DNA from: Candidatus Omnitrophota bacterium
Lineage (GTDB): Bacteria > Omnitrophota > Omnitrophia > Omnitrophales > Aquincolibacteriaceae
Reading direction: 5' to 3'
DNA length: 64,000 nucleotides
Assembly: GCA_016930235.1 (NCBI GenBank)
Contig: JAFGHI010000025.1
Span: 16,437-80,436 of the forward strand
Shown piece by piece: positions 6,961 to 41,787 of the stretch. The notes below the pieces were generated by a model. It was not told the origin of the DNA, did no database searches, and saw nothing but the letters and a program-made list of their open reading frames with translations. The position numbers were made by a program, and so were the translations under genes. Position 1 is the stretch's first letter. Each line of letters begins with the position of its first letter.

Positions 6961-6984
6961 AACTAAGAACACGACCTCTTATAA

Positions 6985-8211: not shown

Positions 8212-8748
8212 TTAAATACGAATCTCGAAACTCGAAATCCGAAACAAATTCGAATATCGAAATACAAATAAAACAAATAACACTAAAACAATACTCGCTT
8301 GTTCCTTCAGATTGACTTTCGTACAATAGAACCGAAAATGTTCATCAATTCCGTCGATTCTTGAATCAATGACTGCACTTCTTTTTCTAAACCGTTCGTA
8401 CAAACGCCCTCCAAAAGTCGAAGCCAATAACGGCTTTCTTTTGCCTCTTTCCTGCAGATCGTGATACGCATGCCAAAATCTTTTTTCCCTAACGACTCGT
8501 TGGCTTCGATATAGTTTGCGCCAACAGAGCCGGAGGCCCTCAATAACTGTCGCATATCATCCTGCACAATCCAGGACTTGTTCGCCTTCGATAATAGATC
8601 GCGCACTTGTACGGCAAATTTATAAGTCCGTTCCTCTAAATCGTATTTCTTTTCTTTTTTATCCGCTGCCATAACGATTTCGTTTTCTCTTTCTTATTTC
8701 GAATTTCGAAATTCCTTCGGATTTCGTGATTCGGATTTCGTATTTTCT
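8212..8748. mobile_element. Family-1 composite element, copy C: inverted heptamer-repeat arms flanking an intact four-helix-bundle gene
   Basis: Left arm 8212-8285 (cgaatctcgaaactcgaaatccgaaacaaattcgaatatcgaaatacaaataaaac) and right arm 8690-8748 (ttatttcgaatttcgaaattccttcggatttcgtgattcggatttcg) are inverted relative to each other and enclose ORF 8307..8672. Confidence 0.6.
8307..8672 (-). CDS. Four-helix-bundle protein (TIGR02436 family), copy 2, carried inside the family-1 element
   Basis: 121 aa. DDMRQLLRASGSVGANYIEANE and KDFGMRITICRKEAKESRYWLRLL match the family's two conserved helices. Confidence 0.85.
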   Translation of the reverse strand: MAADKKEKKYDLEERTYKFAVQVRDLLSKANKSWIVQDDMRQLLRASGSVGANYIEANESLGKKDFGMRITICRKEAKESRYWLRLLEGVCTNGLEKEVQSLIQESTELMNIFGSIVRKSI

Positions 8749-8767
8749 GCTGTTGCGCCTACTTCGG

Positions 8768-10790: not shown

Positions 10791-10844
10791 GTGTTATCTA
10801 TCTCCTTAATTATGATTTCATATATTCATAAAAACTAAGCTTAA

Positions 10845-11040
10845 TAAATTCGAAATGCGAAACACGAAATCCGAAACAAATTCAAATATCGAAATTCAAA
10901 TAAAACCGAACGCTTCATTTCCTTAAATACAAACCGTATTACCTTCTTTTTTATCCACCGCCATATCGTTTTATACTTTTTCTTTTTTATTTCTAATTTC
11001 GAATTTGTTTCGTGCTTCGAAATTCGAATTTCGGATTTTC
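10845..11040. mobile_element. Family-1 miniature element, copy D (deletion derivative), directly adjacent to 4HB copy 3
   Basis: Arms cgaaatgcgaaacacgaaatccgaaacaaattcaaatatcgaaattcaaataaaacc and ttatttctaatttcgaatttgtttcgtgcttcgaaattcgaatttcggatttt. The spacer reverse complement reads ATG GCG GTG GAT AAA AAA GAA GGT... (MAVDKKEG), almost identical to the MAADKKEKK start of 4HB copy 2, then stops. Confidence 0.6.
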
Positions 11041-11064
11041 ATGAACGCGGTACGCGGTCCATGC

Positions 11065-14847: not shown

Positions 14848-14928
14848 TGAGATTGATTTATTTTAAAAACGGACACGCCGCTTTGAGAAATCTACAAAGG
14901 CTTCGGAAGGCTTAACTCATTCTATGAA

Positions 14929-16041: not shown

Positions 16042-16283
16042 ATTTTACTCTAGCCTGCACGGTCGAATAAAGATCTTTTATTCCCTTCAGATAGAACAGA
16101 CTATCGTTAAAGACTGAAACAAAATAAAGGTTGGGGGCAAAATTGGCAGCCGAAAAAAATAGGCTCTTTAGCGACACACGAAGCACCCTTCGAGACATCG
16201 ATTTAACAACAACCGTAAAAACTCTACGCCGTACGCAACGCTTTGGTCATCAAAAGAAATTGTTTAATTGCAAGACTAAAACA

Positions 16284-16322
16284 AAAAACCGCAGGCCGGA
16301 TTTTGCATCCAGCCTGCGGTTT
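16284..16322 (-). terminator. Rho-independent terminator downstream of gap
   Basis: The minus-strand reading ccgcaggctggatgcaaaatccggcctgcgg is a GC-rich hairpin followed by TTTTTTG, 30 nt after the gap stop. Confidence 0.6.
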
Positions 16323-16351
16323 CTAGGTTAAGGCTCTCGATCTTTTTTAAA

Positions 16352-17413
<1,062 letters not shown>

Positions 17414-17536
17414 CTAGAGAGCTCAGTCTGTGGGGGCAGAGTCACGTCTAAGCGGTCGTGATTACAGATTAGTGGGACATTATAGAGACTATTTAAGGGC
17501 TGTCAAGGGGGGTAATCGAGGAGCGCTGGGAACCGC

Positions 17537-17812
17537 GATTTGCGATTTTGGATTTTAGATTTTGGATTGCGGATTGCCCGTTTGGGCGAAAATCCGAAGT
17601 ATGAAGTTCGAGGTACGAAGTAAGAGGTAAGATGTATGAAATTTCGGATTTGGGATTTTGGATTTTAGATTTTGGATTGCGGATTGCCCGTTTGGGCGAA
17701 TTTAACCCCTCACCCTTTCCCTCTCCCCTTTGGGGAGAGGGCAGAGATGAGGTGATAAATTTGCCTAAGCGTATAATCGAAAATCCAAAATCCGCACTCC
17801 CAAATCTAAAAT
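17537..17812. repeat. Family-2 miniature element, copy E: left arm duplicated in tandem, with internal palindrome ccctctcccctttggggagaggg
   Basis: gattttggattttagattttggattgcggattgcccgtttgggcgaa occurs twice (17547-17592 and 17655-17700). The right arm at about 17776-17812 (tcgaaaatccaaaatccgcactcccaaatctaaaatgg) is inverted. A segment gaagtatgaagttcgaggtacgaagtaagaggtaag is shared with 19888-20008. Confidence 0.6.
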
Positions 17813-17827
17813 GGGCCTCTTAACACT

Positions 17828-18935
17828 CTAGCCTACCACTTCTTGATAAACCCCGAATATCTCTCCGGCCACCCGAGTCAGAGTAAACCGTTCGGTTACA
17901 AGTTTCCGCGCCTCGCCGATGAGCTTCCGGCGAATCCCGCCCTCATCTAAAATTACCCGCGCTAAAGCTTTTTCAAGGGCGTCTTCATCCTTCGGAGGGA
18001 CTAGGAGACCGGTTTTTTCGTTTTCGACAATTTTATCCAGTGCCGGGATGGCCGTCAAAACAACGGGCTTCCGGCAGGCCATTGCCTCGGCTATCGTCAG
18101 CCCGAAACCTTCGCGATAAGTGGGGGTAAATGCAAATAGATCGATCGCCGCATAAACCTCCGTCACGTCACTTAAATTCCCCAAAAAGACAACATGTTCT
18201 TCCAGTCGGAGATCCCTGACCAGGTTCTCTAATGCCTGCCGATAGGTTCCCTCTCCGGCAATAAGTAGTTTTAAATTTTGGAATTTTCTCCTTAAGTCCT
18301 TGACCGCGCGGATCAGGTAGGAGTGTCCTTTATCTTCGACAATTCGCGAGACGACACCGATAACCGTATCGGTGGGCTCAAAACCGTAGGAACGCTTAAG
18401 TTCACTGGCGTCCTTTTCCCCCATCCGTTCATCCAGCTCCTCGACATCAACACCGTTTTCGACTAAGCGAATTTTCGACTCCTCCACGTGAAAAGTCTCT
18501 CTTAACATCACACGCACCGGATCACTGATGGCAATGACCCGATTGCCCCATGCCGGATGTAAACGCCTGCCCAACCGCGGTTTGTAAAATCCGTGGCACG
18601 TTGTCACATAAGGAATGCCGGTCAACACATGGATCCACGATGCCAAAACCTCGGTCACACGCGTATGCGCATGAAGGAGATCGATCTTTTCCCCTTGGAT
18701 CATTCGAATTATTCCAGGCAGATTCCAATAAATCTTCGGATTCAATTCACTTTTGGTCCGGATCGGAAAGACCCAGGTCTTAAAACCTTCCTTTTCGAAT
18801 TCATTAAGGGCCGTGCCGCCGCTCGATAAAAATTGAGTTTCAACACCATATTTCCGGAGTCCTTGAGAAAGCTTGAAGACATAAACCGTAATCCCGCCCG
18901 TATTAAGGTGAGTCGTGAGGTGCAGGACTTTCATG
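17828..18935 (-). CDS. Glycosyltransferase family 4
   Basis: GT4 C-terminal motifs (EGFGLTIAEAMACRKPVV). The start was adjusted to the internal MKVLHL Met at 18935, giving an ATGA overlap with the fmt stop. Confidence 0.8.
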
Positions 18936-19872
18936 ATTGGCCGAGGCAATACCCGGCGGTTAACCGTTTACCGTTCGCATAATCGGCACCCGACATTTCT
19001 TTTCTGCCTTCGGGTCGTAAGCGATCAATAAGAAGATGTCCTTTTCCCGTTTGGACCCGGATAAAACCGTCCTTGGAAATCTCTTTGATTTCACCGGGTT
19101 TTCCTGCGCTTTCAGTTTTATTCCCGCAACGCGCCTTCAAAATAAGGATCTGCTTCTTTTGATCAAAGGTATACGCCCTCGGCCACGGAACAAGACCGCG
19201 AATTTGCCGATGAATTTCCTCTGCAGGCTTCGACCAATCGATATGCCCGTCTTCTTTTGTCAGCTTGCGCGCATACGATGATGTGATATCACTTTGCGGA
19301 ATCCGAAGCTCGGTCCCCTTGCCGATCTGTCTTAAGACAAAGGCCACCACCTGATAAGACAGCTCCGCCAACTTCCCGTTTAAAACTTCAGAATCCCAAT
19401 CAGGATCAAGCGGGATCCGTATTTGATGGAAAATATCCCCCGCATCCAGACGATGGGTCACTTCCGCCACGGATACTCCGGTTTCACTGTCGCCGTTTAA
19501 GATCGGCCAATTGATCGGAGCAGCACCTCGATACCGCGGCAAGATCGAGGGATGGACATTCAACGCATATTTTGCGGGTACCGTCAACCACGTTGAAGGG
19601 ATAAAGAGGCCGTAGGATGAAACCACAAAAAGGTCCGGCGTTAAAGCTTTGATCTTCTCCAACAAGGCTTCGTCTTTGAGAGTCTCCGGCATCTCGCAGG
19701 GAAGCTGTCTTTCTTCGGCAAAGAGACGAACCGGGGTCGGCTGCATCACAAGACCGCGGCCCTTTTTCTTGTCCGGCGTCGTAATGATAAGAACAACCTC
19801 GTGCCCGCTCTCCAAGCAGGCCTCCAATGCCTTCATTGAAAAATCCGAAGATCCAAAGAATATAATTTTCAT
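18931..19872 (-). CDS. fmt: Methionyl-tRNA formyltransferase
   Basis: 313 aa. MKIIFFGSSDFS...HPSLLPRYRGAAPI are the formyltransferase motifs, with the C-terminal Fmt domain. It lies upstream of def. Confidence 0.9.
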   Translation of the reverse strand: MKIIFFGSSDFSMKALEACLESGHEVVLIITTPDKKKGRGLVMQPTPVRLFAEERQLPCEMPETLKDEALLEKIKALTPDLFVVSSYGLFIPSTWLTVPAKYALNVHPSILPRYRGAAPINWPILNGDSETGVSVAEVTHRLDAGDIFHQIRIPLDPDWDSEVLNGKLAELSYQVVAFVLRQIGKGTELRIPQSDITSSYARKLTKEDGHIDWSKPAEEIHRQIRGLVPWPRAYTFDQKKQILILKARCGNKTESAGKPGEIKEISKDGFIRVQTGKGHLLIDRLRPEGRKEMSGADYANGKRLTAGYCLGQS

Positions 19873-19887
19873 GGTATTTCCTTTATG

Positions 19888-20008
19888 CCTCGAAGTATGA
19901 AAATTCCTACTTCCCGCCTCTTACTTCGTACTTCCTACCTCATACTTCCGGCTTCCTACTTCTTACCTCTTACTTCCGACTTCTTACTTCATACTTCCTA
20001 TTTCCTGC
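19888..20008. repeat. Family-2-related tandem array of tacttc(g/c)tacttcct(a/t)cct units filling the fmt-def intergenic space
   Basis: The 19888-20008 sequence is tacttcccgcctcttacttcgtacttcctacctcatacttccggcttcctacttcttacctcttacttccgacttcttacttcatacttcc. It is the reverse complement of the gaagtatgaag/gaagtacgaagta segments in family-2 arms. Confidence 0.55.
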
Positions 20009-20010
20009 CC

Positions 20011-20547
20011 TTAAAGTCTCCGTCCCTTTTCCTTCTGGATTTGTTCGTATTGGGCGAGCAACTCCTGGCGGGTCCCAAAATCCACGCGATCCACAAAAAG
20101 TTTGCCGTTCAGGTGGTCTGTCTCATGCTGAATGACGCGCGCGTAAAAATCCTTGGCCGTCATCTCGCATTTTGTTCCCTCCCGGTCATAATATCGAAGC
20201 CGAATGGATTTGGCCCGTGGGACCTTCGCCGATATATTGGGAAGACTCAAACAACCTTCGACGTCTGTCTCCTCACCCTGCATCTGATCAATCTCGGGGT
20301 TGATGACGATAATTTCTTCTCCCTGTTTCATCGTCGGGCATGCCACGAATATTTGTTTTGCAACTCCCACTTGAGTCGCCGCCAAACCGACACCATCCTC
20401 CACATACATGGTTTCGATAAGGTCCTCAATGAACTCCTGGGTTTCGGGACCAAAATCAGACACCCTTTTCGCGGTCTTCAGTAAAATCGGAGCCGGATAA
20501 ACATATATTTTTAATACAGCCATAGTTTCACGACCTCCTAAGCGCAT
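20011..20547 (-). CDS. def: Peptide deformylase
   Basis: GLAATQVGV, EGCLS and QHETDHLNG are the three Def motifs. Confidence 0.95.
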   Translation of the reverse strand: MRLGGRETMAVLKIYVYPAPILLKTAKRVSDFGPETQEFIEDLIETMYVEDGVGLAATQVGVAKQIFVACPTMKQGEEIIVINPEIDQMQGEETDVEGCLSLPNISAKVPRAKSIRLRYYDREGTKCEMTAKDFYARVIQHETDHLNGKLFVDRVDFGTRQELLAQYEQIQKEKGRRL

Positions 20548-20577
20548 TATAACGAAACGCCCGAAACCGGATCAACA

Positions 20578-22644
20578 TCATAAAATCGATAAGGGGTCCA
20601 CATCGATAGCGACTTGAACCGCTGCGGGCTTTCGCAAAGATGCAAGGCATTGACTCACTCTTCCCGCAAGTTTCATCCCTCGAGCGAATTTGATCATGAT
20701 ATGCCACCTAAAATGACCGCGTAATTTATAAAACGGCAAGGGTGAGGGGCCCACAATTTGTGCCCACTCCGATTGTCCCGGCGCGGGGTTATCCCCGCTC
20801 ATGATGCCTTGAAATTCCTTTCGCAACTGGTCCCGCAGCTCCCTTGAAAACAGATACACCTTTTTCTCCTCGCGGGAACGGACAATGATGTTCATCAGCT
20901 GGTAAGCCGGAGGATAATGGAAAAGATGCCTTTCGGGAAGTTCCTGCTTATAAAAATTTAAGTAATCGTGATTTTTTGAAAACTTAACGCTGGGATGATC
21001 AGGGGAAAACGTTTGAACATAAACGCGCCCCGGCTGACTTCCTCGGCCGGCCCGTCCGGCTACCTGCGTTAAAAGCTGAAAGGTCCTTTCGGCCGATCGA
21101 AAATCCGGAAGCATCAAACCAACATCGGCAAGGATGACTCCGACAAGGGTCACGTGGGGAAAATCAAAACCTTTCGCAATCATCTGGGTCCCGATCAGGA
21201 TATCCGAATTGCCTTCCCGAAATCCTTTCAATATTTTTTCATGAGACCCTTTCCGGCGGACACTGTCGGCATCCAAACGCGAAATACGCGCCGTGGGAAA
21301 TTGTTTTGCAACTTCGCTCTCCACTTTCTCGGTTCCAAATCCGGCAAATTTCAGCATCGGAGACTTACATTGGCCGCAAATGACCGGTACGGGCTTCTCG
21401 GCATTGCAGTAATGGCACAAAAGCGAGTTGTCCTCCTGGTGAAATGTCAGTGACACCTGGCAGGAATCGCATTGTTCGACATAACCGCACTTCGGACAGT
21501 GGATATGGGTCGAAAACCCTCTCCGGTTTAAAAGCAGCAGCGTGCCTTCCTTGGCTTTCAGATTTTTTTCAATTTCGGTGGCGAGCGGAAAGCTGAGTAT
21601 CCCTTTTTTTCTAAATGCCGGTCCGCTATTTTTTAAATCGACAATATGCACTTCCGGAAGAGGCCGGTCTTCGATCCGGCTGGTTAAATCCAAACGGACA
21701 ATTTCACCGGTCTCGGCCTTGTACATCGTCTCCAAGGAAGGCGTTGCAGATCCCAGGACCATCACTGCATTTTCATTTTGAGCGCGGAATTGGGCGACTT
21801 CTCTGGCATGATATCGTGGATTGGTCTCCTGCTTATAAGAGTTTTCATGCTCTTCATCGATAATAATCAAGCCTAAATTCGGGACCGGGGCAAAAATGGC
21901 CGAACGCGGCCCCAACACCACGCGCTTTCGTCCGCTTTCGAGACGCTTCCAAGCCAGAAACCTTTCGGTATCATTCAACTTACTGTGCAGGATTTCGAGT
22001 TCATCCCCGAAGTGATCGTGGAAAAACCTCTTAATCTGTTCGGTTAAAGCAATCTCCGGTACCAGACAGATGGCCGACTGATTCTGCTTCAAAATATCCC
22101 GGATGGCCCGAATGTAAACTTCGCTCTTCCCGCTGCCGGTGATCCCGTAGAGGAGAATGGGCTTCGGATTTTCCTCGAGGAATCCCGAACGAATGGCCTC
22201 AAGCGCCCTTTTCTGATCGTCCGTCAAATTGAAATCTTCCTTCTTTTCCCAATCAACGACTTCCGCGATGGATTCCTTCTGAAGGGCTCTCTCGGCCTTC
22301 TTGCCGTACTTCACCCAGCGCGGCAAGGCATTTTCGATCGCCTCACCCCAACTGGACCCATAATATTCAGAGATCCATTTAGTCAGCTCAAGAACTTTTC
22401 CGGACAGAACCGGCTCATCGTCAAGAATATCCTTGATGTCCTTACAAGAAATGTCATCGGCGGCTTCCTTGCGATCGACGAGATAACCAATCAATTCCCT
22501 GTTTCTGAAAGGAATCGAGACGCGAACCCCGCGCTTAATTTTGGGTTCTAGTTCAGCCGGAACCGCGTAAGTAAAAAGTCCTGTGACGGGAAGGGGTACC
22601 GCAATATCGATCAATAATTTCGTCACTTCGGTTGTTTGGGACAT
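20578..22644 (-). CDS. priA: Primosomal protein N' (replication restart helicase)
   Basis: 688 aa. Walker A GITGSGKSEVY, DEEH box, and a Cys-rich zinc region CPKCGY...CDSC...CHYC...CGQC. Confidence 0.9.
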   Translation of the reverse strand: MSQTTEVTKLLIDIAVPLPVTGLFTYAVPAELEPKIKRGVRVSIPFRNRELIGYLVDRKEAADDISCKDIKDILDDEPVLSGKVLELTKWISEYYGSSWGEAIENALPRWVKYGKKAERALQKESIAEVVDWEKKEDFNLTDDQKRALEAIRSGFLEENPKPILLYGITGSGKSEVYIRAIRDILKQNQSAICLVPEIALTEQIKRFFHDHFGDELEILHSKLNDTERFLAWKRLESGRKRVVLGPRSAIFAPVPNLGLIIIDEEHENSYKQETNPRYHAREVAQFRAQNENAVMVLGSATPSLETMYKAETGEIVRLDLTSRIEDRPLPEVHIVDLKNSGPAFRKKGILSFPLATEIEKNLKAKEGTLLLLNRRGFSTHIHCPKCGYVEQCDSCQVSLTFHQEDNSLLCHYCNAEKPVPVICGQCKSPMLKFAGFGTEKVESEVAKQFPTARISRLDADSVRRKGSHEKILKGFREGNSDILIGTQMIAKGFDFPHVTLVGVILADVGLMLPDFRSAERTFQLLTQVAGRAGRGSQPGRVYVQTFSPDHPSVKFSKNHDYLNFYKQELPERHLFHYPPAYQLMNIIVRSREEKKVYLFSRELRDQLRKEFQGIMSGDNPAPGQSEWAQIVGPSPLPFYKLRGHFRWHIMIKFARGMKLAGRVSQCLASLRKPAAVQVAIDVDPLSIL

Positions 22645-22659
22645 CCAATAGCACCTTAT

Positions 22660-22901
22660 ATTTTAGATTTCGGATTGCGGAATGCGGATTGCCCGCTTAG
22701 GCAAAAATCCGAAGTATGAAGTATGAAATGTGAAAAAAGATGAATCGTAAGTAAATGAGTCCATAGCGACTATTTTTTCGCTTTTCTCTCCTACCGCGCA
22801 CATCATATTTTTTACGTCATATTCCATGCGTCCTTCATACTTCATACCTCGTACCTCATATTTCTTTATTCAATCCAAAATCCGAATTCCAAAATCCAAA
22901 A
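22660..22901. mobile_element. Family-2 miniature inverted-repeat element, copy I, between priA and the UDG gene
   Basis: The left arm ttttagatttcggattgcggaatgcggattgcccgcttaggcaaaaatccgaagtatgaagtatg and the right arm catacttcatacctcgtacctcata...caatccaaaatccgaattccaaaatccaaaat are inverted copies. The right end abuts the UDG stop codon (22902). The 60-aa ORF inside it is probably spurious. Confidence 0.55.
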
Positions 22902-23645
22902 TTAGAGTTTCACATCGCCCAAGTTATCCATTTCCCCCTTGATCTTTTTCATATCCTCCCAGACCTTACGCTTCTCCCCGGGATTGCGCAAAAGATAAGC
23001 CGGATGGTACGTGCAAAGAACCGGAATCCCGCGGTAGTCGTGGAATCTTCCCCGCATTTGAGAAATGGACGAGCCCGTTTTGAGAAGGGCTTGTGCGGCA
23101 AATGTTCCTAAGGCACAGATGATTTTGGGTTGAATCAAATCAATGGTCCCGCTCAAAAAAGGTTCGCAATTTAAAATTTCTTCCGGCTTGGGGGTGCGGT
23201 TTCCGGGCGGACGGCAGCGCAGGCAATTCGCTATAAAAACATCCGAACGCTTGAGCCCGATCGATTCGATAATCTTCGTCAAAAGCTGTCCGGCTTTTCC
23301 CACAAAGGGCAGCCCTTGAATATCCTCATCACGGCCGGGCGCTTCCCCGACGAACATTAATTTAGCTTGAACATTGCCCGCCCCAAAAACGACTTTGTTG
23401 CGCGTCGACGCTAATTCTTCACAAGCGGTACATTTCAAGGCTTGTTCACGCAAATCGATCAGTTTTTCTCGAACACTTTTGGCTTCCGTTGAGGATTTTA
23501 CCCGAACCGGTCCGGCATCGGCTCGAACGGCTACAGGCTTCGATGCGGGGGCAAGGTAAACCTCCTCAATCCCATCCTCTTTCAGCATTTGCATAAAAAG
23601 CTTGGCTTCCGAGGTCTTAAGCGCTGTCTCCTGACTCGGGTTCAT
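22902..23645 (-). CDS. Uracil-DNA glycosylase, family 4, with an N-terminal extension
   Basis: GEAPGRDEDIQGLPFVGKAG (the family-4 GEAPG motif) and a C-terminal HPAYLLR-type segment. 4-nt overlap with the upstream GT28 gene. Confidence 0.8.
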   Translation of the reverse strand: MNPSQETALKTSEAKLFMQMLKEDGIEEVYLAPASKPVAVRADAGPVRVKSSTEAKSVREKLIDLREQALKCTACEELASTRNKVVFGAGNVQAKLMFVGEAPGRDEDIQGLPFVGKAGQLLTKIIESIGLKRSDVFIANCLRCRPPGNRTPKPEEILNCEPFLSGTIDLIQPKIICALGTFAAQALLKTGSSISQMRGRFHDYRGIPVLCTYHPAYLLRNPGEKRKVWEDMKKIKGEMDNLGDVKL

Positions 23646-24763
23646 TTCTCAACACCTCTTAATGCTTCTCGCACAAGATCATCGGACGCATTCGGTTTCG
23701 CCAATTCCCGGATAATCCTTTTTTTCTCTTCCAGCATTCCGGGATTCTTGAAAATCGTGCCCATAATCAATCGGACATCTTCCGGTTTTTTCATCATAAA
23801 AGCCGCATTTCTCGTTTTCAAAATCTTCGTGTTCCACATTTCCTGCCCGGGAATGGGGTCGATGACGATCATCGGAACACCTTTGGCCAGGCTTTCGGTT
23901 GTTGTTGCTCCGCCGGGTTTGGCAATCATCAAATCACTGGCTTCCATCAAATCGTGCATAAAGTCAACGAAACCGAAAATCTTGACCGGAAAACGATAAC
24001 TTTTCGTTTCCAGCTGCCTTTTCATTTCTTCGTTATATCCGCAAACAACAAAACATTGAACCCGGTCATGAAAATCATCCAGGGCCTTCAAAATACCCTC
24101 CTGCGGCCCCAATCCGAAACTGCCGCTTGTCACCAAAACCGTCAACCGATCGTCTTGAAATCCCCATTTTTTCAAAATCTCCGATTTCTTGCCTCTGGGC
24201 AGAAAAATCGGATCGACGGGAATTCCGCCCACGCGAATATTTTTCTCCTCGACACCCTTCTTCATGAGGGCTTCCTTGCCCTCCTCGCTCATGATCCAGT
24301 AAAGATCCGTTCCCCGGCTCAGCCAATAAGCATGGGGATAGAAATCGGTCACCACGGTAATTAATTTAGACCGGAGTTTCCCTTCGCGTTTTGCCCGCGC
24401 AAATAGCTCGGCCGGAAAAAAATGCGTCGAAATAATCGCGTGAGGCTTTTCCTTCATCACTTCTTCGAGAACCCCCCGCCCCATGACCCGGTTCGAAAAA
24501 CTGTTGATCGGTCCGAATAAACGATCCATCTTCGGTTGATCCAAGGTTTCATAGATCCATCCCCATAGCCCCGGGCAATATTTCACCATATAAAAATAAA
24601 CGGCCGGGTACGCCTTGCGAAAATAGGCCGGGGTATGATCCAGGATATCCTCAAGCTTAACATCCTGGGCCGATAAACCGCTCCTCAAAAAGGCCTTTTC
24701 GAGGACCTCCGCCACACGTTTATGCCCTTGTCCGGCATTGGCATGATAAAGACGAATCTTCAT
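23642..24763 (-). CDS. MGDG-synthase/MurG-like glycosyltransferase (GT28; processive diacylglycerol glycosyltransferase family)
   Basis: 373 aa. An N-terminal MGDG_synth-like region (KIRLYHANAGQGHKRVAEVL) plus a GT28 C-terminal domain (KPGGATTTESLAKGVPMI). Confidence 0.7.
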   Translation of the reverse strand: MKIRLYHANAGQGHKRVAEVLEKAFLRSGLSAQDVKLEDILDHTPAYFRKAYPAVYFYMVKYCPGLWGWIYETLDQPKMDRLFGPINSFSNRVMGRGVLEEVMKEKPHAIISTHFFPAELFARAKREGKLRSKLITVVTDFYPHAYWLSRGTDLYWIMSEEGKEALMKKGVEEKNIRVGGIPVDPIFLPRGKKSEILKKWGFQDDRLTVLVTSGSFGLGPQEGILKALDDFHDRVQCFVVCGYNEEMKRQLETKSYRFPVKIFGFVDFMHDLMEASDLMIAKPGGATTTESLAKGVPMIVIDPIPGQEMWNTKILKTRNAAFMMKKPEDVRLIMGTIFKNPGMLEEKKRIIRELAKPNASDDLVREALRGVEK

Positions 24764-24765
24764 CC

Positions 24766-25314
24766 CTAACGGATCCCTTTCTTTAAGATCTCGACGGCCG
24801 ATCTCAGATTATCACAAACAGCATCGGGTCTCGATTCCTCGGTTAAGCGGGTTTCGTCACGTCTTCCATACCCCGTTCGGACAAGTATCGTCTTAAGGCC
24901 AAAACGCTTCCCCGCTAAAATGTCCGAGACCTTATCCCCGATCATATAGGTTTTTTGAGGATCATACTGAATATCTTTGACGGCCTCTTCAAGGAGCCCG
25001 ACCTCCGGCTTGCGGCATTTACACTTCTCATCCTTCCCATGAATACAGTACATCGCATCACGAATCGACACACCATGTCTTTTGAGTTCGGCGAGCATTT
25101 TATGATGGATTTCCCAAAGAATATCTTCGGAAAAGAGTCCGTCCCCAACTCCCGCTTGATTCGATATCATTATGATTTCAAGCCCCATCCTGGAAATCAA
25201 CTGGAGAGCTTCGATAGCCCCTTCTTCAAATTGGAAGTCCTCCCACTTGGTCACATAGTCCATCAAATCAACATTGACGACACCATCACGGTCAATAAAA
25301 ATAATCTTTTTCAT
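24766..25314 (-). CDS. gmhB: HAD-IIIA phosphatase, D,D-heptose 1,7-bisphosphate phosphatase-like
   Basis: IFIDRDGVVN (HAD motif I), ISNQAGV, a Cys cluster HGKDEKCKCRKP, and GDKVSDILAG. The start was moved to the internal MKKIIF Met. Confidence 0.7.
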   Translation of the reverse strand: MKKIIFIDRDGVVNVDLMDYVTKWEDFQFEEGAIEALQLISRMGLEIIMISNQAGVGDGLFSEDILWEIHHKMLAELKRHGVSIRDAMYCIHGKDEKCKCRKPEVGLLEEAVKDIQYDPQKTYMIGDKVSDILAGKRFGLKTILVRTGYGRRDETRLTEESRPDAVCDNLRSAVEILKKGIR

Positions 25315-25337
25315 CTTGAAATTTCCCTTTTGCATGA

Positions 25338-26471
25338 TCACTTTCGCCGGTAAAATTCGCGCGCCGCTTGATAAACGCGGTCAATTTCGGACTCTTCCAT
25401 TTCCGGGAACATGGGCAAAGCAACCACTTCCCGGCACAAGCGATCGGTTATAGGCAATCGTTGTGATTTCCGGACAAATTGACGGTAAGCAGGATGCCGG
25501 TGGACCGGCACCTCATAATGTATCATGGTTTGCACCCCTTCTTCGGCAAGCTTTTGGCGGAAATCATCTCTTTTCCCGCTCGGCACACGAACAACGTACA
25601 AATGATAAACATGGCGTGCTTGTTCGGGACGATACGGCAGGATAAGAGGCGTCTCTTTGAGGTACTCATCGTAAACCCCCGCGATTTCCTGGCGCCGCTC
25701 CGTCAATTCATCAAGATGTTTGAGTTTGACCCTCAGAATGGCCGCCTGAACGGCATCCAGGCGCGTGGCCCATCCCGCAACAACGTATTTCCCAGCTTCA
25801 TTTCGACCTACATTCCGAAACTCGCGCACCTTATTTCGGGTCTTTTCCGAAAGCGTTGTCACCATCCCGCCGTCACCGAAGGCCCCTAAATTTTTGGTCG
25901 GATAAAAACTAAAACAGCCGGCATCGCCAAAGCTTCCGACTCTCCGGGCACTCCATTCGGCCCCGTGGGCCTGAGCGCAATCTTCGATCAATTTCAATTT
26001 CTTTGTCCGAACAATCTGCATCAAGGCGTCCATGTCCGCCGAAAGCCCGTATAAGTGAACCGGGAGAATCGCTTTCGTCTTTTTCGAAAGCAATCTTTCC
26101 ACCGAAACGGGATCCAAGTTGAACGTCTTCGGATCAACATCCGCAAAAACGGGTTTCGCTCCGACATGCGTAATTGCATAAACAGTAGAAACAAAGGTAT
26201 AAGAAGGAACCAGGATCTCGTCTTTGGGTTGAATACCGACAGCCTTAAGGGCCAGTATCAAGGCATCGGTTCCCGAGCCGATGCCGATCGCATCAGGCGT
26301 CGTGCAATAAGCCGCAAATTCTTCTTCAAACGCCCTGACGATATCGCTCAAGATATAATTTCCGGAATCGAGAACCTGCGCGATGGCCTGATCGATTTCC
26401 GTTTTGAAGCGAAGATATTGTCTTGTCGTATTAAAATAAGGGACCTTTGTCATTTCCCGATGAACAGCCAC
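25338..26471 (-). CDS. DegT/DnrJ/EryC1/StrS-family PLP-dependent sugar aminotransferase
   Basis: 377 aa. Family-typical layout; ATRLDAVQAAILRVKL is the dimer-interface helix. Confidence 0.85.
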   Translation of the reverse strand: MAVHREMTKVPYFNTTRQYLRFKTEIDQAIAQVLDSGNYILSDIVRAFEEEFAAYCTTPDAIGIGSGTDALILALKAVGIQPKDEILVPSYTFVSTVYAITHVGAKPVFADVDPKTFNLDPVSVERLLSKKTKAILPVHLYGLSADMDALMQIVRTKKLKLIEDCAQAHGAEWSARRVGSFGDAGCFSFYPTKNLGAFGDGGMVTTLSEKTRNKVREFRNVGRNEAGKYVVAGWATRLDAVQAAILRVKLKHLDELTERRQEIAGVYDEYLKETPLILPYRPEQARHVYHLYVVRVPSGKRDDFRQKLAEEGVQTMIHYEVPVHRHPAYRQFVRKSQRLPITDRLCREVVALPMFPEMEESEIDRVYQAAREFYRRK

Positions 26472-27238
26472 CTAGGCCACCTCTTTCTTTCGTTTCATTT
26501 CACGGTACTTTGCGTAGGAAAAAAGCTGATAGAGTCCATGAAAGACGGACATAAGAAACCCCATGAATCCGTGTTTCCATCCTTGCTTCAGGAAATAGTT
26601 CTTGAGGAAACGGTCTGCGGTCTTCCTCAAGATAGTCGCCATCCGGACTTTTCGTCCGTCCTGGATCCACTTGTCGGCCTCAAGCGTTGTCTCCCGGTTA
26701 AATTTGCATATCCATTGCTGCAAGGTTTCGCAGGAATAGTGAAGGATGTCGCCTTTCAGTTGACCGCAGGTTCCCTCATAAATTACCCGAGGATGCACAC
26801 GCGCTTCTTCATAACGGAACTGTCCCTTCCTGAAAAATCTGGCCTTCGCCGCCGGATAATACCCTGCGCCCTGAATCCACTCATCCCCAATAAAGGTTTT
26901 GATCGGAATCGCGTAGCAAACATGCGGGGAAGCATTCTCTCGAGCAATCTCAGAAATTTCAACCGCAAGTTCCGGCGTGACCCGTTCATCGGCATCAAGA
27001 CTCAAGACCCAATGCTGAGTCGCCTTGTCGTAACCGAAATTCCTGTGCCGGCCCTCGATGTCCATCGCCCGCTCGAACACCTTGGCTCCGCACTTTTTGG
27101 CAATTTCAACCGTGCGGTCGGTACTCTGGTCATCAATCACGATGATTTCCCGGGCCCATGCCGCACTCTTCAAACAATCCTCTAAACGTTTCTCTTCGTT
27201 CTTGGCAATCACCACAACAGAAACGGGTGCTTTACTCA
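26472..27238 (-). CDS. Glycosyltransferase family 2
   Basis: VSVVVIAKNEEKRLEDCL...IIVIDDQSTDRT...LSLDADE. The start was set to the internal MSKAPV Met (27238), because the 5' extension in the ORF track is encoded by the family-3 repeat arm. Confidence 0.8.
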
Positions 27239-27244
27239 TTTTGA

Positions 27245-27390
27245 CTCCTTCGTAACAGACCAAAGACCGAAGACTCAAGACAACAGACCGAATTCTAAAA
27301 AAATACCTTCATATTCAACTTTTTTAAACCCATTTAAATCTTTCTCACCAAAGTTTTTGGTCTTTAGTCTTTGGTCTCCAGTCTTCGGTC
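27245..27390. mobile_element. Family-3 miniature inverted-repeat element (gaccgaa/ttcggtc heptamer arms)
   Basis: Left arm cagaccaaagaccgaagactcaagacaacagaccgaa (27257-27293) and right arm tttggtctttagtctttggtctccagtcttcggtcttc (27350-27387) are inverted, with a spacer of about 57 bp. The element fills the gap between two genes. Confidence 0.55.
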
Positions 27391-27394
27391 TTCA

Positions 27395-28822
27395 TTAATA
27401 CGCGTTTTTAAAACCTCTTGAGGTTAACGTCATCAGTAAAATTTCAATATCAAACAAAAGAGACCAGTTTTCCATATAAAAAAGATCATACTTAATGCGT
27501 TCTTGAATGGAGGTATTTCCCCGGTAACCGTTCACCTGGGCCCAGCCCGTAATGCCCGCTTTAACCTTATGCCGTGACATATATCGGGGTATAGCTTCTC
27601 GAAATTGACTGATAAAATGCGGGCGTTCGGGACGAGGTCCGATTAAACTCATTTCGCCTTTGAGCACATTCAAAAACTGAGGCAATTCGTCAAGGTTCCA
27701 GCGCCGCAAGAAATTGCCGATCCGGGTGCGGCGAGCATCTTTGACATTGGCCCAAACCGGACCCGAATCCTTTTCTGCATCTACCCGCATCGTCCTGAAC
27801 TTGAGCAAATTAAAAACTTTTTCGTCGCGCCCCATTCTCTCCTGACTGTAGAAAATAGGACCTCCGTCATCAAGCTTAATGAGCACAATCACAAATAACC
27901 ACAAAGGGAAACTCAAAAGAAGCAAGATGGATACCGCCAGAAGATCAAAACACCGCTTGGCAAACCGATTCCAAATATCGTCCAACGGTAAAGGCCTGAA
28001 TCCGAGTAACGGGACCGTGCTAATATAATCCACGTCAACGTTGCGGGATAATAACCCGTAAAAATCGGCTCCGATTTTAAATTCGATGAATTTATCTTCG
28101 CAGGCAGCCACCAAATCGGTGATCCTTTCCCGCGTAAAACTCGTATCCAAGAGAATGACCTCGTTGGGCTTCAGATGATCAATAAAACTTTCGCATTGAT
28201 CCGAGATGCCAAGAATCGGAACCCCTTCGACATGTTTGCCGACAAGACCGGGATCCTTTGCGAGGACTCCCACGATTTCACGCCCATAATGAGGGTTGTT
28301 TTTCGCCCATTGAATGATTTGGCGCGTATTGCGATTACTCCCAAGAAGAAGGATCCGTTTAATGTCCCGCTTCTTGATTTTTCTCCTGTATTCCCATTGG
28401 ATCATGAGATAACGCGAAAAAGTCAAAATAATCCCCGAAATGACCCACAAAGTCACCAGGTAAATTCTTGAATAGGAAAAACCACGGTAAAAGAATGTCA
28501 CGGCCATTAGAATGACAACCGAAAAGGTCACCGCTTTAGAAACCAAAAAGATCTCTTCGATCCTTCGAATATGCCGGTACGTTGAATACAATCCATATTC
28601 TCTGAAGAAGTAAAGATAAACCGGAAGAATCACCATAAGCGCCTGAACATAAGGCAGGAAACTGGGGATATTTTCGCTCGAAATCCAACCCGTCACAAAC
28701 CGCACGTAATAAGCAAAAAAGACACTCGCAATCACCGCACCGCAGTCGGCAAGGACCGTCAGGAAAATAAAATGGAGTCTCTTTTCAGTTGTCGGCATCG
28801 GCCACCGGATTATCTTCCTCAA
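27395..28822 (-). CDS. Initiating polyprenyl-phosphate sugar-phosphate transferase (WbaP/EpsB-type 'bacterial sugar transferase')
   Basis: 475 aa. 4-5 N-terminal TMs, a central linker, and a C-terminal catalytic domain KRCFDLL...PIFYSQERMGRDEKVFNLLKFRTM...DELPQFLNVLKGEMSLIGPRP. Confidence 0.9.
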   Translation of the reverse strand: MRKIIRWPMPTTEKRLHFIFLTVLADCGAVIASVFFAYYVRFVTGWISSENIPSFLPYVQALMVILPVYLYFFREYGLYSTYRHIRRIEEIFLVSKAVTFSVVILMAVTFFYRGFSYSRIYLVTLWVISGIILTFSRYLMIQWEYRRKIKKRDIKRILLLGSNRNTRQIIQWAKNNPHYGREIVGVLAKDPGLVGKHVEGVPILGISDQCESFIDHLKPNEVILLDTSFTRERITDLVAACEDKFIEFKIGADFYGLLSRNVDVDYISTVPLLGFRPLPLDDIWNRFAKRCFDLLAVSILLLLSFPLWLFVIVLIKLDDGGPIFYSQERMGRDEKVFNLLKFRTMRVDAEKDSGPVWANVKDARRTRIGNFLRRWNLDELPQFLNVLKGEMSLIGPRPERPHFISQFREAIPRYMSRHKVKAGITGWAQVNGYRGNTSIQERIKYDLFYMENWSLLFDIEILLMTLTSRGFKNAY

Positions 28823-29885
28823 TCAATCCTAGCATCTCTTCTTTAAAGCAAGGCTTGTCAAAATCCCGAATGTCCCCCGGGACATTTCCCCGCTCCCATG
28901 TTTTAGTCTCAAAATCCAGTATCTTTTCGCGAATCGCCCCGGGGCTTTGCTCCTCAAAGAAGAGACCGTTCATCACGCTCTCAAGGGCCCCACCCTTTTT
29001 GAACGCGATCACCGGAGTCCCGCAAGCCTGGGCCTCAAGCGGAACAATCCCGAAATCTTCATCGGTCGGGAAAATAACGGCCCGCGCCTCCGAATACAAT
29101 TTCCGAAGCTCTTCGGCTTGGACCACTCCCAAGAACCGAACCTTGGAACCTCCGGTTTCTTTGGCTTTTCGGCGATAAACTTCCTCTAAGGGGCCCGATC
29201 CGACAATCCATAGTTCCCGATCTAATCCTTGAAAAGCATCAATCACCAGATCCACTTTTTTATAAGGCACAAAAGCCGAGACAACGAGATAATAATTTTT
29301 TGGCTCCCCATCGGGATAAAATCCGGTCAGGTCAACGGGCGGATATATAACTTCAGCCTCGCGATGATAAAAAACCTCGATTCGTCTTCTAACATTCTCG
29401 GAATTGGCGATAAACCGATCAACGCTTGCATTGACCTGAAAGTCCCATTTCCTCAGGCTTGATAAAATCCATGCGATGAGCGGACGAATCCAACGAGGGA
29501 ATTTCCCGAAATAATCCTCTTCGTATCCCCACGCATACCGCATGGGCGTATGGCAATAACAGTAATGCCGTGCCCCTTTGGGGATTCGGACACCTTTGGC
29601 AACGCAATGCGAACTCGATATGACAATATCGCAAGGTTTGATTTGAAGGGTACGGACCACCCAGGGCAAAACCGGCAGCAACCACCGGTAATATTTTTTA
29701 ATGCCCGGCAAATACTGCAAAAAAGACGTCTTCACTTTTCTTTTTTTTAGAGTTTCGCTGATTTTATTTTTATCATAAAACAAGGTATGAATCACGGCCT
29801 CGGGATAAAGTTCCGCCAATGCCTCCAAAACTTTTTCCCCGCCACGCATATGAATCAACCAATCATGGACGAGCGCTACTTTCAT
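28785..29885 (-). CDS. Glycosyltransferase family 4
   Basis: MKVALVHDWLIHMRGGEKVL, with a GT4 C-terminal half. Confidence 0.8.
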   Translation of the reverse strand: MKVALVHDWLIHMRGGEKVLEALAELYPEAVIHTLFYDKNKISETLKKRKVKTSFLQYLPGIKKYYRWLLPVLPWVVRTLQIKPCDIVISSSHCVAKGVRIPKGARHYCYCHTPMRYAWGYEEDYFGKFPRWIRPLIAWILSSLRKWDFQVNASVDRFIANSENVRRRIEVFYHREAEVIYPPVDLTGFYPDGEPKNYYLVVSAFVPYKKVDLVIDAFQGLDRELWIVGSGPLEEVYRRKAKETGGSKVRFLGVVQAEELRKLYSEARAVIFPTDEDFGIVPLEAQACGTPVIAFKKGGALESVMNGLFFEEQSPGAIREKILDFETKTWERGNVPGDIRDFDKPCFKEEMLGLIEEDNPVADADN

Positions 29886-29994
29886 CGTGCCATATCCCAG
29901 TGATAAGTTTTAAGCAATAAGTTGTAAGGAAAAACAAATTTATTCATCGGCCAGAACCTTTTTGTGAAATCCTGATATCATTCGACCCACTTCA

Positions 29995-30052
29995 TCCAAT
30001 CCAAAATCCGCATTCCCCGCCTGCCAGCAGACGGGCAGGCAAAATCCAAAAT
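29995..30052. repeat. Small palindromic family-2-like element (caatccaaaatccg...cctgcc agcagac gggcagg...caaaatccaaaat)
   Basis: Read directly. A hairpin gcctgcc/ggcaggc flanked by inverted aaaatcc/ggatttt units. Confidence 0.4.
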
Positions 30053-30064
30053 TCTCCTGCGTTC

Positions 30065-31180
30065 TTATTTCCCAAGCACCCGCTCATAAACTTCCGCGGT
30101 TTCTTTGGCTGCATTTTCCCAACGGAATTGAGAGACATGCCTCAGGCCGCGCTTCTTGAAGTCTTCGCGCAGCGAATCTGATTTCTCGAGACGCACAATA
30201 GCATCCATCATTTCATGGTGGGCGCATGAATCAATCAAGCAGGCGGCATCTCCGACAACTTCCGGGATCGATGCCGCACGGCAAGCTAAAACCGGTGTTC
30301 CGCAAGCCATGGCTTCAAGCAGCGTCAATCCGAAGCCTTCGTAGAGGGACGGATGAATCAAAGCCAAGGCACCGCTATACAAATGCAAGAGCTCATCCTC
30401 CTCAACATAAGGGATATGAACGATGCGGTCCTTATTTTTTAAAGCCGATAACGCCTCATATCCGGCCGGATATTTTTTATCCTTCCGTCCCACAAGCACA
30501 AGTCCGGCATCGACACGGTTTTCCTCAATCAGATTGCCGAACAAATGGAGCAACCATAATACGTTCTTATGCGGCTTGATCATTCCGACATAAAGAAAAT
30601 AGGTCTCCGGAAGATTATATTTATCTCGCACAGCTTCAATTTTATTCACGTCTTCTGTCGGCCGAAACCGCTCATCAACACCTTCGTAAATAACCGAAAT
30701 CTTTTCGGGGTCAGCATCGAAATGCGTAATCAAATCATCGCGGGTTTTGCGGGATACCGCGATGATTTGATCTGCTTTTTTGACTGTCCGGGTCAACATT
30801 TTTCCGGCGTAAAGAGCCTGGAGAGGCGTAAAAAAATCTTTGCGAAATATCCAGTGGATCAAATCATGGATCGTCACCACCAACTTGGCATTGCCTTTCC
30901 AATAAGGAATGTTGTAATGCGGCGCATGCCACAATTCGCACTGCTGCAAGCATAAAGGATATTCAAGTTGTTCGGCGATGGAATAAATCGATGACCGGAA
31001 CGGATGGCAGGAAACTATATTTTGACCGTCCGGATCTGCATAAGACCCAAAATACTTGATGCTCCTGGCATTGACAACACCCGTCGCACGAAAAGCTTCG
31101 ACTAGACCTTGGATATAGGTGCCGATTCCCGTGTTACGGCTCATCCTGACATCGAATCCTACGCGGCAATTTCGCCCCAT
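30065..31180 (-). CDS. Glycosyltransferase family 4
   Basis: 371 aa. C-terminal EGFGLTLLEAMACGTPVLA. Confidence 0.85.
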   Translation of the reverse strand: MGRNCRVGFDVRMSRNTGIGTYIQGLVEAFRATGVVNARSIKYFGSYADPDGQNIVSCHPFRSSIYSIAEQLEYPLCLQQCELWHAPHYNIPYWKGNAKLVVTIHDLIHWIFRKDFFTPLQALYAGKMLTRTVKKADQIIAVSRKTRDDLITHFDADPEKISVIYEGVDERFRPTEDVNKIEAVRDKYNLPETYFLYVGMIKPHKNVLWLLHLFGNLIEENRVDAGLVLVGRKDKKYPAGYEALSALKNKDRIVHIPYVEEDELLHLYSGALALIHPSLYEGFGLTLLEAMACGTPVLACRAASIPEVVGDAACLIDSCAHHEMMDAIVRLEKSDSLREDFKKRGLRHVSQFRWENAAKETAEVYERVLGK

Positions 31181-31185
31181 GACTC

Positions 31186-41576: not shown

Positions 41577-41616
41577 AGCGTCTTCCTTTTATTGAGCCCG
41601 CCATTTTGGCGGATGT

Positions 41617-41782: not shown

Positions 41783-41787
41783 TGTGC

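Follow-up and report, generated by a model that had tools for sequence, protein, structure and literature searches.

Heptamer-array hairpins between housekeeping genes of an Omnitrophota bacterium and their possible kinship with PF05635 cassettes

Inverted-repeat hairpins built of heptamers are already known from bacteria. The cyanobacterial short tandemly repeated repetitive (STRR) heptanucleotides were reportedly described by Mazel and co-workers in 1990, the small dispersed repeats of Nostoc are said to have been treated by Elhai and co-workers in 2008, and intervening sequences that carry both S23p open reading frames (ORFs) and heptamers are, to our knowledge, known solely inside 23S rRNA. 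In this study, we examine four intergenic sites that make up the second of two repeat families in a 64,000-nt stretch of a Candidatus Omnitrophota bacterium (GenBank assembly GCA_016930235.1, contig JAFGHI010000025.1, positions 16,437 to 80,436), to which we refer throughout as the window. These sites place such hairpins in a new phylum and with a shared core, and their connection to cassettes that enclose a PF05635 gene would be new if it holds.

Among the published systems, some 90% of the GGGAATC inverted heptamers of Xanthomonas are intergenic, and their mean distance from the ORF upstream is 28 nt (Rehm et al. 2015, PMC4692102). They include 70-75 convergent, stem-loop-capable array pairs per genome, and the repeats have been interpreted as G-quadruplex sequences (PMC4692102). 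The GGGGA(T/C)T repeats of Nostoc PCC 7120 are 68% intergenic, and the length of the Xanthomonas and Nostoc arrays differs between close relatives (PMC4692102). A general excess of heptamers among long simple-sequence repeats has been reported (Mrazek et al. 2007, as summarised in PMC4679880), and TAACTGA heptamer direct repeats occur in Beggiatoaceae, Cyanobacteria and Bacteroidetes (MacGregor 2015, PMC4679880). On the side of rRNA, the 23S intervening sequences with an S23p/PF05635 ORF, as in Leptospira and Coxiella, occupy helix 25 or 45 of 23S rRNA, and RNase III is the enzyme that cuts out intervening-sequence stems in Salmonella, Leptospira and Coxiella (PMC4990558). The Coxiella example combines terminal inverted repeats, a PF05635-family ORF, a strain-variable number of tandem heptamers and RNase III excision (PMC4990558). 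Where rRNA intervening sequences and their S23p ORFs come from, and what they do, is still described as unclear (PMC4990558).

Our analysis confirms that the second-family repeats are real and constitute an element-like, related set of hairpin-forming intergenic repeats. The four sites that a preliminary description had placed at 17537-17812, 19888-20008, 22660-22901 and 29995-30052 are all present and read as described. They fall in gap 1 (17378-17827), the def-fmt gap (19873-20010), gap 2 (22645-22901) and a further intergenic gap, respectively. The similarity proposed between them was assessed as the best local alignment score against 300 dinucleotide shuffles, and it exceeds the shuffled expectation with z of 6.7-27.7, the comparison of 19888-20008 with 29995-30052 being the sole exception. 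The two large copies, 17537-17812 and 22660-22901, score z = 27.7 against each other; 19888-20008 scores 17.7 against the former and 9.5 against the latter, and 29995-30052 scores 6.7 and 7.8 against the same two. The pair 19888-20008 and 29995-30052 has no mutual similarity (z = 1.4), because each matches different modules. The core, GCGGATTGCCCGYTTRGGCRAA, occurs three times (17569, 17679 and 22684) against 0.01 expected from dinucleotide shuffles, and the junction AAAATCCGAAGTATGAAGT is exact at both 17589 and 22704. The stretch shared by the two large copies amounts to about 80 nt at 79% identity (family D6), and their centres are unrelated. The common consensus drawn up for the family stands for these two copies only; 19888-20008 and 29995-30052 share the heptamer arrays only. 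Two Logan contigs of run SRR13394437 are 100% identical to the window over 13390-17573 and 17671-20158, independently confirm the array of the def-fmt gap and break exactly within a 47-nt duplication in gap 1. An exact-pattern scan for the core gave 0 matches in GTDB representative genomes and 0 in JGI metagenome contigs, and the GGATTTT, GAAGTAT and core patterns, searched across all fetched loci, returned only coding-sequence or weak matches.

Second-family arms are degenerate tandem arrays of 7-nt units able to grow in place, and the copies span 60-275 nt (Table 1). On the plus strand, gap 2 runs from an outer GGATTKY array through a 27-nt mini-hairpin, an inner purine-rich array and an 89-nt unique centre to a complementary inner and a complementary outer array; its right end had been said to touch the stop of the uracil-DNA glycosylase (UDG)-family gene, and the stop codon 22902-22904 indeed lies in the terminal unit of that array. 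Gap 1 is ordered as outer array, core, inner array, a second outer array with half a core, a GC-rich hairpin tip, the core-half complement and a single AAAATCC-type array, and the tandem duplication of its left arm is borne out by a 47-nt exact repeat (17544-17590 = 17654-17700). Between the right arm of gap 1 and the stop codon of the GT4 glycosyltransferase gene 17828-18949 lie 15 nt, the 19899-20010 array fills the def-fmt gap onward from the def stop codon at 20011-20013, which it directly abuts, and the small form ends at 30054, 10 nt from the stop codon of the glycosyltransferase gene 30065-31180. The sites are thus confined, as had been claimed, to short intergenic gaps of a co-directional minus-strand gene array with a stop codon 0-15 nt away, and the convergent array pairs (inverted pairs I1 and I18-I25) lie near the 3' end of the upstream ORF at that same distance from stop codons. 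The small form at 29995-30052 does not have the palindromic layout first ascribed to it: AAAATCC units stand in the same direction on either side of a 7-bp GC hairpin, with no paired arms.

Table 1. Coordinates of second-family modules, sister-family copies and neighbouring signals in the window (I and D numbers, inverted and direct repeats; TRF, Tandem Repeats Finder).
Feature	Position	Strand	Basis
Gap 1 outer heptamer array L1 (GATTTGC GATTTTG GATTTTA GATTTTG GATTGCG GATTGCC)	17537..17578	+	TRF period 7 at 17539-17568
Core mini-hairpin copy A, CGGATT-GCCC-GTTT-GGGC-GAAAATCCG	17570..17596	.	core pattern match; fold
Gap 1 inner purine-rich array (AAAATCC GAAGTAT GAAGTTC GAGGTAC GAAGTAA GAGGTAA GATGTAT GAAATTT), begins with AAATCCGAA	17589..17645	+	inverted repeats I7, I10
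Gap 1 duplicated outer array L2 plus core 5' half, containing the second copy of the 47-nt repeat	17646..17700	+	
Gap 1 central GC-rich hairpin (CCCCTCACCCTTTCCCTCTCCCC TTT GGGGAGAGGGCAGAGATGAGGTG), tip of 81-nt-arm hairpin	17706..17754	.	inverted repeat I1, folds
Gap 1 right arm: TTTGCCTAAGCG (core-half complement), then AAAATCC-type array	17760..17812	+	inverted repeat search
15-unit heptamer array (CTTACTT / CCTACTT types), mRNA sense GAAGTAN	19899..20010	+	TRF period 7, 14.7 copies; I7, I10
Gap 2 left outer array (ATTTTAG ATTTCGG ATTGCGG AATGCGG ATTGCCC)	22660..22694	+	
Core mini-hairpin copy C, CGGATT-GCCCGCTTAGGC-AAAAATCCG	22685..22711	.	core pattern match; fold
Gap 2 inner left purine-rich array (AAAATCC GAAGTAT GAAGTAT GAAATGT GAAAAAA)	22704..22737	+	
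Gap 2 unique centre, unrelated to gap 1 centre, without recognisable ORF remnant	22738..22826	.	
Gap 2 inner right pyrimidine-rich array (CTTCATA CTTCATA CCTCGTA CCTCATA), complement of inner left array	22827..22864	+	
Gap 2 right outer array (AATCCAA AATCCGA ATTCCAA AATCCAA AAT); last unit holds UDG stop codon	22866..22904	+	I18-I22
Small form: AAAATCC-type units in direct orientation flanking 7-bp GC hairpin 30018-30040	29995..30054	+	direct repeat D19, fold
Sister-family ORF-bearing cassette read as full form, heptamer arms 8695-8745 and 8214-8273, enclosing PF05635 / TIGR02436 gene 8307-8672	8212..8755	-	inverted repeat I9, Pfam
ORF-less sister copy keeping first ~8 codons of PF05635 ORF	10835..11055	-	alignment to full cassette
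Promoter, sigma-70 type TTGACA-16-TATAAT (12/12 matches), for GAPDH gene	17506->17479	-	consensus scan
Textbook intrinsic terminator, 18-bp, after GAPDH	16324-16284	-	consensus scan

Fold prediction, which the preliminary description had proposed for the arms, came out in their favour, with gaps 1 and 2 clearly beating shuffles on both strands (z -5.4 to -7.6). Core copy A folds at -12.8 kcal/mol over 17565-17600 (z -3.6) and copy C with z -2.5, and for the 29995-30052 site the predicted fold does not surpass that of shuffles (z -0.5 and -1.9). The inverted arms of gap 1 (I1; 17648-17728 and 17732-17812) are 81 nt long and 73% complementary. The inner array of gap 1 is without a local partner; its complement is the 15-unit def-fmt array 2.3 kb away (I7, I10), and a possible duplex of 19899-20010 with 17590-17650, at -59 kcal/mol (z -7), would enclose fmt and the GT4 gene. 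One of the core variants gives a U.G wobble, and does so on the minus strand alone.

The sister, or first, family of the window includes genes. Three minus-strand ORFs (6334-6792, 8307-8672 and 11065-11502) belong to PF05635 / TIGR02436, "four helix bundle / 23S rRNA intervening sequence protein", and are distantly Avd-like; the three lie within 5 kb of one another, and a fourth PF05635 paralogue (P0122, 84% identical) is found on the same contig beyond the window. ORF 8307-8672 stands exactly between inverted heptamer arms at 8214-8278 and 8677-8745 (alignment score 56 versus a shuffle maximum of 27), and we read the sister family as a cassette: a PF05635 / TIGR02436 four-helix-bundle gene bounded on both sides by short-period arrays in inverted orientation. 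This gene family is the one found in 23S rRNA intervening sequences, and it is homologous to Avd, a protein of diversity-generating retroelements. At ORF 6334-6792, a purine-rich upstream arm pairs with the gene's own 3' coding tail (6807-6840 / 6380-6413). Besides the ORF-less copy listed in Table 1, further ones of about 200 nt occur at 6975-7185, 41605-41790 and 5895-6085; all align to both arms, and the copies at 10835-11055 and 6975-7185 retain the first ORF codons (ATGGCGGTGGATAAAAAAGAA versus ATGGCAGCGGATAAAAAAGAA). Because of these alignments to both arms and to the first codons, we read the ORF-less copies as internal-deletion derivatives of the ORF-bearing cassette. Copy 5895-6085 lies in-frame and stop-free inside a YdjM-like membrane hydrolase ORF (5515-6327, minus strand), to which it adds about 60 residues (roughly aa 84-146), such that the Pfam match takes up 225 residues for 159 profile positions; either the copy is a tolerated loop insertion or the host gene is split or dead. 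Full and deleted copies, together with this in-frame insertion, make insertion or dispersal plausible. A compensatory-change test covered seven sister copies, of which five belong to the window and two to other organisms. Across these, 91% of cells are paired, and 12 cells carry double changes where shuffling gives 4.6 (none of the 500 shuffles attains 12), a signal that is specific to the correct register and lost on sliding by 1-3 columns. These compensatory changes indicate that arm-to-arm pairing has been kept.

Cassettes of this kind are also found in other organisms. Relatives of ORF 6334-6792 were fetched in 80 metagenome loci (50-66% identity), 69 of them with both flanks. These two-flank loci have a period-8 array on 97 flanks, a period-7 array on three and other periods on none, and in 43 of the 69 the upstream and downstream sides form an inverted repeat that scores z of 6 or higher. 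Over the 80 loci, the density of period-8 arrays is 2.77 per kb up to a distance of 300 nt from the gene and 0.32 per kb elsewhere. Read on the sense strand, 53 of 54 upstream arrays are rich in purines and 56 of 64 downstream ones in pyrimidines, and the units vary between loci (GGAGGAGT, AAGGAGAC, GGGTGACG and others). The relatives of ORF 8307-8672 (63-66% identity) are co-directional, occur in unrelated contexts (groEL-dnaJ, rnc-X and X-cytochrome) and have on either side the GAAATYC heptamer arms that the window also shows, with arms that begin at the upstream stop codon in the groEL-dnaJ and X-cytochrome loci; no relatives of this ORF were found in viral contigs. Array period follows the protein subfamily, being 8 for relatives of 6334-6792 and 7 for those of 8307-8672, and it may be set by the encoded protein.

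The plasmid matches are cyanobacterial in 23 of 23 cases, 14 of these from Nostoc, and three of the four cyanobacterial plasmid loci inspected have the inverted array design. NPUN_RS36250 on plasmid pNPUN02 of Nostoc punctiforme PCC 73102 (L180) has (GGGGAGCA)n upstream and its complement downstream. In this locus and in Nostoc sp. MS1 (L182), a four-helix-bundle gene lies between G-rich 7-8 nt arrays (GCAGGGG / GGGGAGCA) and their complement, and the L182 array begins at the upstream stop codon. The Nostoc plasmid loci may connect the classic cyanobacterial G-rich heptamer repeats to the PF05635 cassette. Three further sets of loci are of note. On metagenome contig Ga0163210_1005484 (L149), the PF05635 ORF at 1501-1902 is followed by another (GGAGGAGT)n array and, beyond a short GC hairpin, by (ACTCCTCC)n, so that two purine arrays compete for one pyrimidine array, a layout like that of the duplicated left arm of gap 1. 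A PF05635 cassette with heptamer arms lies directly downstream of rnc in L169-L171 (JGI / ENA contigs; gene 3001-3360 of L169), which represent one genomic context only; RNase III is the enzyme that excises intervening sequences (PMC4990558). Finally, period-7 arrays of up to about 30 units are present in Planctomycetes PriA loci (L038 12347-12575; L048 2584-2681, 7740-7830 and 9055-9117; L055 758-858; L066 276-491), and in L038 an inverted pair TTAGGAG / CTCCTAA surrounds a GC hairpin, starting at the PriA stop codon. A jackhmmer search of 80 PriA loci found no PF05635 genes.

The second family shares its arm start with these cassettes. The inner arms of both large copies start AAAATCCGAAGTATGAAG (17589, 22704), the arm of the cassette in the cytochrome locus L174 starts TAAATCCGAAGTACGAAA, and the 12-mer AAATCCGAAGTA at the second-family arm terminus is identical to that of the L174 PF05635 cassette. 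The AAATCCGAA(G) terminus is found in both large second-family copies, in all five sister copies of the window and in loci L165 and L174; every sister copy of the window and the groEL cassette start (A)AAATCCGAA, and L169 has a related GAAATYC arm without the exact AAATCCGAA(G) terminus. The shared arm start therefore suggests that the second family is one branch within the same arm type, which has amplified units of its own, rather than an unrelated element. Our preferred reading, in which our confidence and our doubt are about equal, is that the second family consists of ORF-less, slippage-expanded members of an intervening-sequence-like hairpin class. The four sites themselves are non-coding hairpin modules made of inverted degenerate 7-nt arrays (GGATTTT, GAAGTAT and their complements) and a 27-nt GC mini-hairpin core. 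What this reading builds on directly is the anatomy of the repeats, their homology, module order and inversion, their position at stop codons, their folding potential and the class-wide association with PF05635; the second-family copies may in turn descend from an ORF-bearing cassette or its arms, and the family may itself be mobile. Copies would arise by insertion or duplication beside stop codons, and their arrays would lengthen or shorten via replication slippage until the non-coding gap is full, with pairing between the two arms maintained. In polycistronic minus-strand transcripts the arms would form long imperfect double-stranded RNA stems, possibly including a long-range stem of about 50 bp that encloses fmt and a glycosyltransferase gene. 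By analogy with rRNA intervening sequences, such stems could function at the RNA level as substrates cleaved by RNase III, or at least as 3'-end-protecting structures, and uncouple neighbouring cistrons. More broadly, and as a tentative proposal that we would not call probable, PF05635 (Avd-like) genes with inverted 7- or 8-nt arrays could be a widespread, undescribed class of mobile hairpin cassette that inserts at or near stop codons between housekeeping genes and occasionally in rRNA (the intervening sequences), and whose ORF-less, slippage-expanded derivatives would explain part of the heptamer excess in Nostoc, Xanthomonas, Planctomycetes and Omnitrophota.

Several observations weigh against our preferred reading. 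Six-frame translations of all four gaps contain no PF05635 ORF remnant, and the outer GGATTTT arrays and the GC core are in none of the PF05635 cassettes retrieved. Non-repetitive sequence is common to only two loci, so that dispersal might come down to one local duplication event over a distance of 5 kb. If arms are oriented by the purine-first rule, the inner arms of gap 2 run antisense to the genes around them, and the ORF-bearing cassettes retrieved are all co-directional with their neighbours. Heptamer arrays without a partner arm or PF05635 genes are found in Planctomycetes loci, which indicates that arrays can arise on their own. Complementarity between the arms is only 70-73%. Wobble asymmetry on the mRNA strand lends weak support to pairing at the RNA rather than the DNA level, with 44 G.U against 27 A.C over all hairpins (about p 0.06) and 15 against 10 in the second family alone.

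The main rival is that of local heptamer microsatellites, in which heptanucleotide repeats were born in place by polymerase slippage, are immobile and without function, and resemble one another through a shared slippage-prone unit and occasional gene conversion. We consider this rather unlikely, though it accounts for much of what is seen: no period but 7 is enriched, the unit sequence shifts little by little along an array, and arrays fill gaps up to the stop codons, as expected if selection on coding sequence limits their growth. Single, unpaired arrays with no PF05635 nearby also occur in the PriA loci of Planctomycetes, a spirochaete and a Clostridia metagenome-assembled genome, and published surveys report a heptamer excess and propose polymerase slippage (PMC4679880, PMC4692102). 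However, two places 5 kb apart share a non-repetitive 22-nt core and a fixed order of modules (outer array, core, AAAATCC, GAAGTAT array), and the arrays stand in inverted pairs with significant folding, where slippage by itself makes no complementary array on the opposite side. The sister family, moreover, has full and deleted versions, arms conserved across organisms and compensatory changes. The repeated G-R-A-N4 units might alternatively be iterated RNA or DNA sites for an oligomeric protein, such as the pentameric four-helix-bundle protein or a binder like TRAP, HutP or CsrA, with the hairpin as a secondary matter. The start of nearly all purine-strand units with GAA, GAG or GGA, the dependence of period on protein subfamily (8 for 6334-6792 relatives, 7 for 8307-8672 relatives) and the strict purine-then-pyrimidine polarity of arrays around the gene would all fit such protein-binding arrays, which we nonetheless judge quite unlikely, as the compensatory changes indicate arm-to-arm pairing and the free variation of units within the loci of one protein subfamily argues against sequence-specific recognition.

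A role as a usual regulatory signal, that is, as an intrinsic terminator or as a promoter-carrying element for the downstream gene, had been raised in the preliminary description and is very unlikely from our results, even though the copies follow directly on stop codons, form stable stem-loops and, in gap 1, lie between a stop codon and a perfect promoter of the gene for glyceraldehyde-3-phosphate dehydrogenase (GAPDH). That promoter, the only strong one, is 31 nt beyond the left end of the gap 1 element and not part of it. No copy contains a canonical intrinsic terminator or a sigma-70 promoter match; a scan of 16000-31500 found no stem with a U-tract on the minus strand inside the copies and a total count equal to the shuffle expectation. 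The organism does use canonical promoters and terminators, as after GAPDH (Table 1), and their absence from the repeat elements is therefore informative. In addition, the gap 19873-20010 lies inside the normally co-transcribed def-fmt pair, and the stems far exceed the length that terminators need. We find it hardly credible that the copies are classical miniature inverted-repeat transposable elements (MITEs), non-autonomous DNA transposons with terminal inverted repeats, a transposase acting in trans and target-site duplications. They do have inverted arms, measure 60-275 nt, are intergenic and come in several related copies, but their flanks (CACCTTAT / TAGAGTTT in gap 2, GAACCGC / GGGCCTC in gap 1) hold no target-site duplication, their centres are unrelated, the window holds no full-length copies, and their termini are neither defined nor conserved because the arrays are degenerate. 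No transposase or gene of the REP-associated tyrosine transposase (RAYT) type was found among 20 repeat-adjacent ORFs scanned against Pfam. The suggestion that the elements insert without disrupting genes is therefore upheld only as far as the sister family makes dispersal plausible; strict MITE features were not found in the window.

Other identities were tried and rejected. The sequences carry no GTAG or CGTC tag of repetitive extragenic palindromic (REP) sequences or of the REP doublets forming hairpins (REPINs), and no Y1-transposase-like ORF was present among those scanned. A CRISPR-like array does not agree with a period of 7 and no spacers. As to G-quadruplex repeats, the arrays contain no run of three or more G, such runs being confined to the two GC hairpins (17706-17754, 30018-30040). 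Coding repeats are set aside by stop codons in all frames, and a rRNA-located intervening sequence (helix 25 or 45) by a window without rRNA, in which all copies lie between protein-coding genes.

Of the 56 gene models used for the window, a housekeeping part of the chromosome, 54 lie on the minus strand. GC skew is below zero in every 2-kb bin of 1-64000 (cumulative -4.07), and the whole window is a single, replication-arm-oriented, co-directional gene array. The genes near the second-family sites are those for GAPDH, the GT4 glycosyltransferase, fmt, def, priA, the UDG-family gene and further glycosyltransferases. An Rfam scan of the window returned no rRNA and no other family, and a tRNA scan returned none. 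The nearest relatives of the window's PriA, apart from its source, are at most 67% identical and too distant for an empty-site comparison; most related Omnitrophota PriA loci are without period-7 arrays. Among tandem periods 3-12, period 7 alone is enriched in the window, with 94 windows of 42 nt at no less than 70% self-identity and 0 for each other period. TRF detects about twenty period-7 arrays, 8 of the 23 intergenic gaps that measure 40 nt or more contain a strong one, and on the purine-rich strand the array units nearly always begin GAA, GAG or GGA. A heptamer hairpin with other units (AAGACCA / GGTCTTY) lies at 27250-27400, its arms 27263-27301 and 27354-27392 being 77% complementary, and overlaps the start of the GT2 gene 26472-27278. 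A short run of three GAATTAG units (14926-14945) lies where the DUF1016 / nuclease gene 14929-16041 ends and overlaps its stop codon.

The heptamer excess (STRR since 1990, the Xanthomonas repeats and the 2007 surveys), for which there is no agreed origin, and the rRNA intervening sequences may be one phenomenon. If inverted short-period arrays are truly the arms of a mobile cassette with an Avd-like gene, both puzzles become testable in culturable organisms, for which Nostoc punctiforme NPUN_RS36250, in genetically tractable cyanobacteria, and Xanthomonas are candidates. Within very long co-directional operons, the second-family elements may mark likely points of RNA processing or insulation. 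On the practical side, heptamer elements break short-read assemblies and can sit in-frame inside a gene.

In open-access text, we found no paper that ties PF05635 genes outside rRNA to flanking inverted 7- or 8-nt arrays or to ORF-less derivatives. The closest published analogue of the second family is the set of GGGAATC pairs of Xanthomonas, which are likewise degenerate tandem 7-nt units, intergenic and in convergent pairs. Compared with the Xanthomonas and Nostoc repeats (PMC4692102), the Omnitrophota units differ, do not form G-quadruplexes and belong to another phylum, and the Xanthomonas and Nostoc work makes no tie to PF05635 genes or to a shared non-repetitive core. More generally, the published units (CCCCAGT / TTGGTCA / CAACAGT, GGGAATC) differ from GGATTTT, GAAGTAT and their variants. 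The STRR and the heptamers of the general excess are, like the second family, intergenic dispersed tandem heptamers with a sporadic lineage distribution, for which slippage has been proposed; the STRR, however, are defined by their unit alone, with no arm / core / arm architecture described.

The TAACTGA repeats also form heptamer arrays in intergenic regions of housekeeping operons, and a post-transcriptional role is suspected for them, but they consist of one fixed unit in direct orientation just upstream of start codons, with inverted partners in 1 of 170 sets (PMC4679880). With MITEs and REP / REPIN sequences (PMC3116915), the second family has in common that it is short, palindromic, intergenic, multi-copy and non-coding, and the sister family displays the relation of full element to deletion derivative that is typical of MITEs. 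Unlike MITEs and REPINs, the elements described here are without target-site duplication or GTAG / CGTC tag, no RAYT or transposase gene was found among the ORFs scanned, and their arms are tandem arrays rather than unique inverted repeats. As for the 23S intervening sequences, the second family differs from them in lying between protein-coding genes and in being ORF-less, and RNase III cleavage, demonstrated there, is here a conjecture by analogy. Both nevertheless have inverted repeats that give a long stem, tandem heptamers of variable copy number and a place within the transcript of a host RNA, and the sister cassettes hold the same gene family.

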